From: an uncultured Bacilli bacterium
GTDB taxonomy: Bacteria; Bacillota_I; Bacilli_A; RF39; UBA660
Assembly (NCBI GenBank): GCA_947595345.1
Contig: CANQEQ010000002.1
Coordinates: 1-37,863 of the forward strand
Direction: 5' to 3'
Length of the DNA stretch: 37,863 nucleotides
The position numbers and the translations under genes were made by a program. The notes under the pieces are model-generated. The model was not told the DNA's origin and did not search any database. It worked only from the letters and a program-made list of their open reading frames with translations. Positions 32,085 through 37,863 of this stretch are shown in pieces; position 1 is the stretch's first letter, and every line of letters starts with the position of its first letter.

Positions 32085-33698
32085 TTAAATTCTATTTTTT
32101 TCTCGTAATTTTTTAATTTCTTCATTTTGCATATAAGAAGCATAATCTACTCGTCTATCAACAATTGTTCCATTTTCAAAAATTTCTATAATTCTATTGG
32201 CTACTGTTTCGTTTAATTCATAGTCAACACTTGTAAATAAAATTTCTCCTTTAAAATTATTAAGTCCTTTATTTAAAGATGTAATACTTTCAAGGTCTAA
32301 GTGATTAGTCGGTTCATCAAGTAATAGAACATTTGGTTCTAAAAGCATCATTAAAGATAACATACAACGAGCTTTCTCACCACCTGATAGGACATTAACA
32401 GGTTTAAATACTTCTTCGCCAGAAAATAACATTCTTCCAAGAAAACCTCTTAAAACTTCTACATCATCAATTTTTTTAAATTTACCAATCCACTCAATTA
32501 TATTTTCAGAGCCTTTAAAATACTCTGTATTATCATTTTTAAAATAAGCTAAATTAGAGTTTACACACCATTTAATTTCACCACTTGTATATTTTAAATT
32601 TTTAGTTAAAACATCAAAAAGTAAAGTCTTTTGAATATTAGAACCTAAAATTAAGATTTTATCACCTTTTAAAACTGTGAAATTAATTTTATTTAAAAGA
32701 CGAGAAGTTCCATTTTGAACTGTTAAATTAGTAACTCTTAAAACTTCCTGACTATTTTCTTTTTCAAATTTAAAATCTATATAAGGATATTTTCTTGACG
32801 ATGGTACTAATTCTTCTAATTCAATTTTTTCTAAAATCTTCTTCCTAGAAGTTGCTTGTCTACTTTTAGAAGCATTAGCTGAAAATCTAGCAATAAATTC
32901 TTTTAGTTCTTTAATTTTATCTTCTTTCTTCCGATTAGCATCTTTGATTTGTTTTAATAGAAGTTCACTTGATTCACAGTAAAAATCATAATTACCAGCA
33001 TATAAAGTAATTTTTTTATAATCTATATCTAAAATATTCGTACAAACATTATTTAAAAAATGTCTATCATGGCTTACTACAATTACTAAGTTTTTATAAT
33101 TAATAATAAATTCTGATAACCAATTAACAGCTTCAATATCTAAATGGTTTGTAGGTTCATCAAGTAATAATATATCCGGATTTTGAAATAAACTTTTAGC
33201 AAGTAGGACTTTAACTTTAATATTATTTTCAAGTTCTTGCATTTTTTTGTAATGTAAACTATTATCTATTCCTAAATTAGCCAGTAAGGTTGCAGCTTCA
33301 CTTTCTGCTTCCCAACCATTAAGTTCTAAAAATTCAGCTTCTAATTCGCCAAGTCTTAGGCCATCTTCTTCGGTGAATTCTGTGTGTGAATATAATTCTT
33401 CTTTTTCAAGTTTTATATCATATAATTTTTTATTACCCATTATAACAACATCAATTACTGTATAGTTATCATATTTAAAATGGTCTTGCTCTAAAGTTGA
33501 TATTCTATCGTTTTTAGAAATTACAATTTCCCCAGTTGTTGTTTCAAGTTCTCCATTTATAAGTTTTAAAAAAGTTGATTTACCAGCTCCATTTGCTCCA
33601 ATTACACCATAGCAAGCTCCATCAGTTAATTTTAAATTAACATTTTCAAATAAGGTTTTCGTTCCAAATCTTAAACTAACATTATTAATATTTATCAT
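32085..33698 (-). CDS. ABC-F family ATPase (no TM domain) with an asymmetric pair of ATP sites
   Basis: Two NBDs are joined by a charged linker (KDANRKKEDKIKELKEFIARFSANASKSRQATSRKK). NBD1 has Walker A GANGAGKST and Walker B ILLLDEPTNHLD. NBD2 has signature LSGGEKAR and Walker B VLLLDEPTNHLD. The NBD1 signature (LENNIKVK), NBD2 Walker A (GSNIQKT) and NBD2 H-loop (SVD in place of SHD) are degenerate. Confidence 0.9.
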   Translation of the reverse strand: MININNVSLRFGTKTLFENVNLKLTDGACYGVIGANGAGKSTFLKLINGELETTTGEIVISKNDRISTLEQDHFKYDNYTVIDVVIMGNKKLYDIKLEKEELYSHTEFTEEDGLRLGELEAEFLELNGWEAESEAATLLANLGIDNSLHYKKMQELENNIKVKVLLAKSLFQNPDILLLDEPTNHLDIEAVNWLSEFIINYKNLVIVVSHDRHFLNNVCTNILDIDYKKITLYAGNYDFYCESSELLLKQIKDANRKKEDKIKELKEFIARFSANASKSRQATSRKKILEKIELEELVPSSRKYPYIDFKFEKENSQEVLRVTNLTVQNGTSRLLNKINFTVLKGDKILILGSNIQKTLLFDVLTKNLKYTSGEIKWCVNSNLAYFKNDNTEYFKGSENIIEWIGKFKKIDDVEVLRGFLGRMLFSGEEVFKPVNVLSGGEKARCMLSLMMLLEPNVLLLDEPTNHLDLESITSLNKGLNNFKGEILFTSVDYELNETVANRIIEIFENGTIVDRRVDYASYMQNEEIKKLREKNRI

Positions 33699-33780
33699 AG
33701 TATCCTCTCAAACTCTATTAGTTTATCATAAATAAGAAAAAAATAAAAGAATTTATATTCTATTAAAATATAAAATAAAA

Positions 33781-33820
33781 AGAAAAAAAGCAAAGAATTT
33801 TTTTGTTTATCCTTAGCTTT
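33781..33820 (-). terminator. Probable intrinsic terminator after the 138-aa gene
   Basis: The minus strand reads GAAAAGCUAAGGA-(12-nt loop)-UUCUUUGCUUUUUUUCU. This is an imperfect ~11-bp stem (one mismatch, one G-U) followed by a U7 run, starting 3 nt after the stop at 33823-33825. Confidence 0.45.
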
Positions 33821-33822
33821 TC

Positions 33823-34239
33823 TTAATGACTATGTTTATATAAAATTCCTCCAATATCAATAAAGAAAATATAAAAAACATTATTAATTAATCTACCAAT
33901 TACCCTAGCTAATATGGGATTATCATTAGTATATAATCTAAAAATTGCATATTTCTTATCATCAAAGTTTCTATGAGAATTTCCAGCAAAAAAGGCGACA
34001 TCTATTTCTTTTTTTATATCAACTTTTTCAAATTCTAATCCTATATTTTTAGAATAGGAGCATAATTCTAAATAAGGAATTCTAGATAATTCTCTAATTC
34101 GTTTTAAAAATTGAAGTTTATATTCATCTGTAAAACCTTTTTCATAATTTATAAAAGAAAAATTAAATTTTATATGTGTCGGACTGAAATAATTAGTACA
34201 CTTAGTATTTACCTTACCTATTTTATTTTTTACTCCCAT
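33823..34239 (-). CDS. Uncharacterised 138-aa protein, candidate toxin partner of the adjacent Panacea/DUF4065 gene
   Basis: The ORF starts 6 nt after the upstream stop. It has no TM segment, P-loop, HEPN Rx4-6H, Fic or HNH motif that I can see. The C-terminal beta-type segment is KYAIFRLYTNDNPILARVIGRLINNVFYIFFIDIGGILYKH. Confidence 0.55.
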   Translation of the reverse strand: MGVKNKIGKVNTKCTNYFSPTHIKFNFSFINYEKGFTDEYKLQFLKRIRELSRIPYLELCSYSKNIGLEFEKVDIKKEIDVAFFAGNSHRNFDDKKYAIFRLYTNDNPILARVIGRLINNVFYIFFIDIGGILYKHSH

Positions 34240-34245
34240 AAAATA

Positions 34246-34755
34246 CTATTCTAATATTTCTCTTTTGAAATATTCCATTATTAAAGTATTATCAATTTTC
34301 TTATTTTTATTTTGAACGTAAGTATTATACCAAGGACTACCAACTTCATGTGTCATATTTCTTAATTGCCAAGCTGTATAAATTGCAAAGTTATCATAAG
34401 TCATATTAAGAACATCTCTAGCTTTAGTATCCGTTTCAATTTTTCTTATAACTAAAGCACTACAAGGTGCATCTTCTAATTTTAATTCGCATCTTCCTTT
34501 ATCTTTAAAAATTTCAAAAACTCTCTTTATTACAGGTCCATGTTCCCAAGCCTCAATTGCTTCCTTGAAAAGGGGACAACCATATTTAGCTAAACTAATT
34601 CCTTGTGCATAATAAAGTAATTTTTGAAGTTTCAAATGGGTTAAATCTTCATATACTTCATAGTCTTCATTATCAACTTGTATCTCTTTTTTCATAGCAT
34701 TATTTTTATATATAAACCAAGTGGCTATATCTAATGCACTATATTCATTTTTCAT
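34246..34755 (-). CDS. DUF4065 / Panacea-domain protein (SocA/GepA/PanA-like putative antitoxin)
   Basis: YSALDIATWFIYK..., LTHLKLQKLLYYAQGISLAKYGCPLF and AWEHGPVIKRVF are hallmark DUF4065 blocks. I place the start at ATG 34755, with AGGAG 7-8 nt upstream. The track ORF extends to 34842 but without an SD. Confidence 0.78.
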   Translation of the reverse strand: MKNEYSALDIATWFIYKNNAMKKEIQVDNEDYEVYEDLTHLKLQKLLYYAQGISLAKYGCPLFKEAIEAWEHGPVIKRVFEIFKDKGRCELKLEDAPCSALVIRKIETDTKARDVLNMTYDNFAIYTAWQLRNMTHEVGSPWYNTYVQNKNKKIDNTLIMEYFKREILE

Positions 34756-34842
34756 AATTTTACTCCTATAATTATCCTTTATTCCACTTATAAGATAACA
34801 TATATTAGAAAAATATTCTACATTTTTTCTAAATATTTCCAT

Positions 34843-35322
34843 TTAATTGTATTTAAACTTTTTATTTTTAAAAATAATTTCTAATAAAATATAAAAACTT
34901 AAATTTAAAATTAAACTATGAGAAAACTTATAGAATAAATCTTTAAGTGTTACTGTATTATACTTAGTTAAATAAACTAACAAAAATAGAAAAAAATCAT
35001 ATAAGAAAATACAAACTATAACTATAATAAAATTCGTAAAAACATTATATCTTATATACTTATTTATTTTTTTAATGAATTTAGCCAAAATTAGAAAAAC
35101 TAAACTATTAAATAAAAATATATAAGAAAATAAAATATCATATAAAAATCCCATAATAAAAACTAATCTAAAATAATATTTATCTTTAACTTTTCCATAT
35201 AAAAAAACAATTAAAGTTAAAGTTAATAAAGGAAAAAAATAATTTAACTTATTAAAATAAATTGGTATAAAATAACTTAGAATAGTATCAAGTAAAATAG
35301 TAATCAATATTAAAATATACAT
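34843..35322 (-). CDS. mreD: Rod shape-determining protein MreD
   Basis: 159-aa polytopic membrane protein lying 11 nt after mreC. The call rests on position, size and hydropathy only. Confidence 0.65.
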   Translation of the reverse strand: MYILILITILLDTILSYFIPIYFNKLNYFFPLLTLTLIVFLYGKVKDKYYFRLVFIMGFLYDILFSYIFLFNSLVFLILAKFIKKINKYIRYNVFTNFIIVIVCIFLYDFFLFLLVYLTKYNTVTLKDLFYKFSHSLILNLSFYILLEIIFKNKKFKYN

Positions 35323-37370: not shown

Positions 37371-37386
37371 AAAGGAATGAGTGTTA

Positions 37387-37560
37387 ATGGATAGTAAAGT
37401 TGCTACTTTAATAAGAATTGATGAACAACTATATGAAGATATAAAATACTTTGCTGAAAAATATTCAAGAAGCATTAATAAACAAATTGAATTTATTTTA
37501 AAAACATATGTTGAAAAAGAATTCTTAAAAGAAGAAAAAGAAAATCAAACTGAAGACTAA
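37387..37560 (+). CDS. Ribbon-helix-helix (Arc/CopG-type) DNA-binding protein, 57 aa
   Basis: My own translation, as it is below the track cutoff: MDSKVATLIRIDEQLYEDIKYFAEKYSRSINKQIEFILKTYVEKEFLKEEKENQTED. The beta strand (TLIRID) followed by helix-helix (LYEDIKYFAEK / SINKQIEFILKTYV) fits an RHH fold. AAAGGAA SD. Confidence 0.65.
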   Translation: MDSKVATLIRIDEQLYEDIKYFAEKYSRSINKQIEFILKTYVEKEFLKEEKENQTED

Positions 37561-37835: not shown

Positions 37836-37863
37836 AAACAACACCTCCTACTATAATATCAAC

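Follow-up and report, generated by a model that had tools for sequence, protein, structure and literature searches.

A gene pair behind mreD in an uncultured Bacilli bacterium as a probable Panacea module of PanT cluster T1 with a possible RelE-like effector

Introduction

In the study of Kurata et al. (2022; PMC8832971), the predicted partners of Panacea-domain (DUF4065) proteins were sorted into 88 clusters, one of which, PanT cluster T1, occupies the opening five to six of the 40 parts of Dataset S1; in the portion of that dataset examined, it looks like the largest. In the same portion, T1 members come from Chloroflexi, Mollicutes, Firmicutes, Bacteroidetes, Proteobacteria, Cyanobacteria and phages, and Table S1 of the study labels them 'mRNase' (PMC8832971). 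T1 PanAT pairs such as those of Salmonella phage vB_SemP_Emek and C. cadaveris (WP_074844973.1/WP_074844970.1) consist of a stand-alone Panacea gene followed by the gene of a small basic partner, the two being tightly coupled or overlapping and carried by prophages. The subject of the present report is a gene pair of the same design in a 37,863-nucleotide (nt) stretch of DNA from an uncultured Bacilli bacterium (contig CANQEQ010000002.1), referred to here as the window. Unlike the prophage-borne T1 pairs, the window copy is chromosomal, lying without phage genes between mreD and a gene encoding an ABC-F family ATPase.

Other described systems share single traits with this pair. The Panacea domain is carried by SocA, a ClpXP adaptor and part of SocAB, the type VI toxin-antitoxin (TA) system of Caulobacter. 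Members of the RelE superfamily (HigB, YoeB, YafQ, RelE) are, like the partner considered here, small basic proteins encoded after an acidic antitoxin. Finally, AarT of Acinetobacter guerrae (NetFlax D3; WP_152878172.1), which can be likened to the partner by description only, gives no HHpred match, has an mRNA-interferase fold and inhibits translation, its own partner being an AAA ATPase antitoxin and not a Panacea protein (PMC10440598).

Results and Discussion

Examination of the open reading frame (ORF) listing together with the sequence itself revealed two genes on the minus strand between mreD and the ABC-F gene, separated by 6 nt, as a preliminary description of this DNA had stated (positions are those of the whole window throughout, and all genes of the pair and its cassette are on the minus strand). 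The first of these, panA (34246..34755), ends with the stop codon TAG at 34248-34246, while the second, panT (33823..34239), begins with the ATG at 34239. PanA is a protein of 169 amino acids (aa) with an isoelectric point (pI) of 6.0, predicted to serve as antitoxin or sensor. It matches Pfam SocA_Panacea (PF13274) over residues 43-143 with an expectation value (E) of 1.3e-19 and 71.6 bits, as compared to a cut-off of 25.7, and also matches phrog_10390 and phrog_1281 at E 1e-39 to 1e-41. Both the LTHLKLQKLLYYAQG and AWEHGPV blocks are found in the panA translation, and the Panacea/DUF4065 identity earlier assigned by eye is upheld by the domain scan. Since PanA contains no extra N-terminal helix-turn-helix (HTH) or PAD1 domain, it is termed a stand-alone Panacea protein. 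With respect to SocA, PanA scores 77.4 bits against the NCBIfam SocA_antitoxin model (NF047745), below the equivalog cut-off of 190, a role as ClpXP adaptor is not indicated, and SocB belongs to cluster T10, whereas the partner of PanA belongs to T1. In the terms used by Kurata et al. (2022) to define PanAT pairs, the Panacea match lies above the gathering score and the partner is encoded on the same strand within 100 nt, the gap being 6 nt. The locus is very probably a PanA-PanT module of cluster T1. In a separate observation, the Panacea protein of Latilactobacillus phage TMW 1.706 P2 (WCZ54921.1; L020:2985-3446, OQ240254.1), with a Pfam E of 3.8e-20 and no HTH match, is annotated in its record as a 'Cro/CI family transcriptional regulator'.

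The association between the two genes was found to be conserved across species. Of 17 complete genome loci, 16 have a gene for a PanA homologue directly upstream of that for the PanT homologue and in the same orientation, with none of the genes that flank the pair in the window recurring. When all loci with an intact upstream side were taken together, a set including 11 IMG/VR viral contigs, one cultured Latilactobacillus phage and Lactobacillus plasmids, the panA-panT pair was present in 30/30. For three remote members of the PanT family (23-25% identity), a Panacea gene adjoins upstream in all nine places shown. Across related loci, panA and panT are separated by -1 to +6 nt, and PanA and PanT co-vary in their identities (r 0.87). 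The PanAT architecture proposed beforehand, with the antitoxin gene first, is what the neighborhoods display, homologues of the 138-aa protein being recurrently downstream of DUF4065 genes.

The PanT protein (138 aa, pI 9.5), the predicted effector or toxin of the pair, returned no match in Pfam, NCBIfam, PADLOC or PDB sequences, its sole library match being the unannotated phage family phrog_38762 (E 8.6e-10). A first search yielded 145 homologues at E 0.001, and when 1.84 billion cluster representatives were searched exhaustively with a profile, 106 of them matched. The homologues are all unnamed or listed as 'hypothetical protein' and belong for the most part to Bacilli and Clostridia bins of gut metagenomes, with a Lactobacillaceae branch also being present. 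Assignment to T1 relies on one T1 protein, YP_006560566.1 of phage vB_SemP_Emek. In the part of Dataset S1 examined, this protein is listed as PanT next to YP_006560565.1 as PanA, in cluster T1, with the order A|T, a gap of -62 and the comment 'not Toxic' (PMC8832971). In the phage genome (JQ806763), the overlap of orf161 with orf149, which encodes a Panacea protein (E 8e-25), measures exactly 62 nt, corresponding to the listed gap of -62, and orf161 was identified as YP_006560566.1 by exact look-up. Alignment of the 81-sequence family profile with orf161 using hhalign gave a probability of 98.6% (E 1.2e-15) over 109 columns, with all conserved blocks in register, and it is on this basis that the window partner is placed in T1. 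The blocks shared by window and T1 PanT proteins are F-N/S-F-S-F, L-S, G-x-E, F-R, V-G, F-Y-I-x-x-I-D and a C-terminal L-Y-x-H. At the same time, the window PanT is only ~18% identical to the Emek protein, and the gut-Firmicutes branch to which it belongs contains an extra Y-T-N-N-N-P loop before R112, unlike Emek T1.

The partner, described beforehand as an undescribed toxin, is accordingly a member of a family that was already catalogued in the same PNAS 2022 study as PanT cluster T1 (PMC8832971) and that is biochemically uncharacterised; what the window adds is the gut-Firmicutes branch of T1. No RefSeq accession of this branch was among the examined rows of the supplements of PMC8832971 and PMC10440598, and no later paper on cluster T1 was found among the papers searched. 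As for the Emek-type T1 proteins, these are very common together with PanA in E. coli and Salmonella, with members of each 90% cluster being found on up to ~1000 contigs. They are always annotated as 'hypothetical protein' (cluster of L035:15152-15637), while their partner is named as a SocA/Panacea antitoxin. It was also noted that the NetFlax taxa table, in the portion available, appears to list 0 TA systems for Bulleidia extructa W1219 and Sutterella megalosphaeroides (PMC10440598), both of which have PanA-T1 pairs in the 2022 dataset; T1 may therefore have left the NetFlax core network.

DNA homology between the window and related cassettes is confined to the region from 34838 to about 33813, beginning 4 nt past the mreD stop codon and ending at the toxin stop codon. 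Given the conserved linkage of the two genes and the restriction of DNA homology to this region, the unit appears to be a mobile cassette of roughly 1 kb inserted right behind mreD. One further ENA contig (L048) shares the mreD-panAT junction at 99.6% identity, and five contigs from additional samples match the cassette together with its ABC-F side at 99.9-100%. In the nearest other genome found (L045, Ga0247611_10005399; 54-66% aa identity), the order orf146-radC-mreC-mreD is kept and three unrelated ORFs follow mreD, with neither panAT nor the ABC-F gene being there, such that this locus represents absence of the pair after mreD and not a clean empty site. In phages and prophages, the cassette has a recurrent address. 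In Latilactobacillus phage TMW 1.706 P2 (OQ240254.1, 31186-32085), the pair comes after the genes for holin and amidase, in 5/5 IMG/VR loci tested panA is immediately preceded by an ORF for an endolysin or amidase, and in a 75%-identical relative the cassette follows a Peptidase_M15_3 gene at an apparent prophage end. In total, the cassette was seen directly downstream of an endolysin or amidase gene, near the end of the element, in loci L020, L023, L028, L030, L032, L033 and L052. Temperate Firmicutes phages usually carry their accessory, host-benefit genes in this position. The copies on L. gasseri and L. salivarius plasmids, in turn, lie among insertion sequence elements. In two remote loci (L037 and L038), a HicA/HicB pair (575-1145) is located ~1.3 kb upstream of the panA-panT(T1) pair, which suggests a small TA/defence island.

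The 87-nt region between mreD and panA (34756..34842) had been considered to be a leader free of ORFs. This proved to be incorrect, as the region is open in frame with panA from an ATG at 34842, directly after the mreD stop codon. The longest panA ORF accordingly spans 34246-34842 and encodes 198 aa, and this start is the one used in a public gene call (locus L048:119-715). In an alignment of 15 PanA homologues, conservation begins at M30, corresponding to ATG 34755, where several homologues start exactly. As such, ATG 34755 was accepted as the start of panA, and the 198-aa call probably extends too far, through the open leader. The Shine-Dalgarno (SD) sequence AGGAG previously reported for this start was seen at 34767-34763, 7 nt 5' of the ATG.

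The leader further contains a -10-like TAGAAT at 34820-34815 and a degenerate inverted repeat at about 34799-34781. The leaders of related cassettes (L001, L002, L004, L007 and L052) are homologous as DNA and have TTGACA-N17/18-TAGAAT in common, together with a co-varying inverted repeat just 5' of the SD sequence, namely CTATC-N10-GATAG in L001 and L002 and CTATTCTA-N4-TAGAATAG in L004. Judging from its sequence, this repeat could be an operator or a hairpin of the 5' untranslated region. In the window, the position of the -35 element is occupied by the 3' end of mreD, such that expression of the window cassette may depend on read-through from mreCD; a promoter scanner listed no promoter in the window leader, so that the -10-like element is a candidate. 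At the other end, RNA folding of the region comprising a terminator-like hairpin and U-rich tract (33770..33824) placed the hairpin at 33824-33783, followed by the U-rich run, with -10.7 kcal/mol and z -2.4, 2 of 200 shuffles folding as well. The imperfect hairpin and U7 tract noted earlier after the second gene are in this respect substantiated, but no terminator was called at 33824-33783 by a strict consensus scanner, since that scanner demands >=3 G-C pairs.

The structure of PanT was modelled with AlphaFold. A first run using a shallow alignment gave a predicted local distance difference test (pLDDT) score of 68 and mixed NTF2/RelE matches, and was dropped for a deeper run. The model obtained with the deep alignment (pLDDT 89.8; predicted template modelling score, pTM, 0.81) contains a strand (24-26), two helices (38-53 and 56-59), a strand (68-72), a short helix (81-84) and, in the C-terminal part, strands 96-101, 111-118 and 121-129. 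This order of a strand, two helices and four strands is compatible with the RelE fold, and the 11 best Foldseek matches in the PDB are all ribonucleases (RNases) of the RelE superfamily, namely, HigB, YoeB, HigB2, archaeal RelE, YafQ and RelK, with E 0.2-0.7. The loose RelE/HigB resemblance noted at the outset hence agrees with a Foldseek ranking that is weak but consistent. Likewise in agreement with what had been read from the sequence, no P-loop, Fic, HEPN, PIN or HNH match was found in PanT, and its most hydrophobic stretch forms a beta-strand and not a membrane helix in the AlphaFold model.

In YoeB and HigB, catalysis involves Glu, Arg and a C-terminal Tyr or His. Alignment of 40 PanT sequences, the Emek branch among them, showed E69 and Y134 to be invariant and F25, F27, S52, G67, R101, R112, F122 and D128 to be almost invariant. 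The C-terminus of most members reads L-Y-x-H, with H136 being present in most. The PanT family is basic (median pI 9.65), whereas PanA is acidic. Similarity to the RelE superfamily includes the predicted strand, two helices and antiparallel sheet, which gave weak best structural matches, and the conserved Glu/Arg/Tyr/His residues, with Tyr and His at the C-terminal tip. PanT differs from that superfamily in having ~45 additional residues, with a tail at the N-terminus and an insertion that separates strand 2 from strand 3, in presenting no sequence or profile similarity and template modelling (TM) scores of 0.3-0.56, and in having as partner a Panacea protein and not RelB, HigA or YefM.

These properties can be assembled into a working model. 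Positions 33813-34838 (minus strand) would constitute an intact mobile cassette of ~1 kb, comprising the leader, panA, panT and the terminator hairpin, that could have reached the site after mreD by transfer from an element of the temperate phage or plasmid type. Because stand-alone Panacea antitoxins neutralise by direct contact (PMC10440598), PanA would bind PanT directly and keep it inactive. The cue for release of PanT would most plausibly be phage infection or loss of the element, whereupon freed PanT would stop translation as a divergent RelE-fold endoribonuclease, with Glu69 and Tyr134, both invariant in the family, Arg101 and the C-terminal His136 as putative active site. A very divergent RelE-fold translation inhibitor is considered the most likely identity of the effector, the odds that it is a RelE-like RNase being put at somewhat less than even. 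For the reading as a whole, that of a phage-derived PanAT module with a RelE-like effector, the mean of our estimates for the module and for the effector leaves it rather probable.

Several results weigh against this reading. Foldseek returned nothing below E 0.001 from the PDB, the best matches having E 0.2-1 and target-normalised TM scores of 0.3-0.56, and nothing usable from the viral BFVD library. None of the Pfam RelE, ParE, HigB, YoeB, YafQ and MqsR models matched any of 81 family members at E up to 10, and a Pfam scan of these 81 members found no family common to more than one member. A hidden Markov model search of PDB sequences with two family profiles gave chance-level matches only (e.g., AcrIIA6, E 0.095). 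With hhalign, comparison to a 30-sequence HigB profile gave 0.1%, with a short local alignment on equivalent strands, while single sequences of RelE, YoeB, YafQ, HigB, MqsR, MazF and CcdB scored not above shuffles. R112 is replaced in the Emek branch. In respect to function, the C. cadaveris T1 protein was toxic in E. coli and was not neutralised by its own PanA, the T1 proteins of E. coli MOD1 and phage Emek were not toxic in E. coli, and no validated TA pair came from these three tests (PMC8832971). The toxin role proposed for the 138-aa protein hence is still a prediction. As to the route of acquisition, no phage, integrase or transposase gene is found beside the window copy, in line with the earlier remark that the pair interrupts a housekeeping neighborhood without flanking mobile-element genes, and for this reason the route proposed for this copy is a matter of inference.

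The non-toxicity of two of the three T1 proteins when alone in E. coli (PMC8832971) can also be understood were the pair not a classical TA module but a phage-defence module of the sensor-effector type, providing abortive infection or superinfection exclusion, in which Panacea senses a phage cue and T1 is harmless alone, becoming active only in complex or on infection. Such a function would fit the sensory role of Panacea favoured by the authors of PMC10440598, the post-endolysin accessory slot of the cassette in seven phage or prophage loci, and the HicAB pair near the remote copies in L037 and L038. Yet no PADLOC model matches either PanA or PanT, no defence assay of a T1 pair is known, further defence genes are not found near the window copy, and the C. 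cadaveris protein was toxic on its own, such that this explanation is judged to be unlikely. Combined with the structural considerations, it would lead to a further, equally speculative proposal, in which T1 is a separate, divergent branch of the RelE fold with its own Glu-Arg-Tyr-His set, its members are not classical addiction toxins but phage-triggered effectors held by a Panacea sensor, and the prophage-borne defence cassette, located behind the endolysin gene in Firmicutes phages, has become fixed in some gut Bacilli chromosomes. If true, the phage-triggered reading would explain why T1 fails in the standard E. coli toxicity-neutralisation test.

A RelE-like shape need not imply RNase activity, as PanT could poison gyrase in the manner of ParE, or bind stoichiometrically to a target on the ribosome or elsewhere. 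The lack of a detectable sequence relation to any RNase branch and the fact that R112 is not universal in the PanT family are both in keeping with this, whereas the conserved Glu, Arg, Tyr and His, with a C-terminal Tyr-x-His, recall the active sites of YoeB and HigB, and the best Foldseek matches are to RNase members and not ParE; a non-RNase effector is considered to be decidedly improbable. More improbable still is the view that a lost prophage left the window copy behind as an inert relic with no present function. Although no phage genes are left nearby, the -35 TTGACA of related leaders is missing and the pair does not stand out from the window in composition, both having a G+C content of 24.9%, both ORFs are full length with all family-conserved residues retained, the SD sequence and terminator are intact, and contigs from six other ENA samples match this stretch at 99.6-100% identity. 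The phage-derived PanAT module with a RelE-like effector accordingly remains the reading followed here.

Although frequent among the prophages of E. coli and Salmonella, cluster T1 has no validated TA pair, Pfam family or known chemistry. What is new in the present analysis is a well-populated gut-Firmicutes branch of T1, represented by the homologues and cluster representatives enumerated above, a confident structural model together with a short list of invariant residues to mutate, and a recurrent position of the cassette in temperate phages, immediately behind the endolysin gene. Taken together, the branch, model and address open concrete, cheap experiments on T1 function. The window copy itself is an ordinary instance that alters no concept and alone settles no long-standing question.

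Beyond the module, its flanks encode conserved proteins. On the upstream side, mreD (34843..35322, minus strand; Pfam MreD, E 8.5e-08) has its stop codon abutting the left end of the cassette, while on the downstream side the gene encoding the ABC-F family ATPase (32085..33698, minus strand) is matched by Pfam ABC_tran, twice, and ABC_tran_Xtn. The wider neighborhood is of a housekeeping nature, with genes encoding RadC, MreC, a CofD/YvcK-like protein, DnaD and Nth, and an Rfam search of the window revealed no RNA family. Near the end of the window, a 59-aa ORF on the plus strand (37381-37560) matches ParD_like (PF11903, E 5.9e-07), with a weak RHH_5 match. As no partner ORF follows it up to the window end at 37863, the sequence may encode an orphan ribbon-helix-helix antitoxin or regulator.

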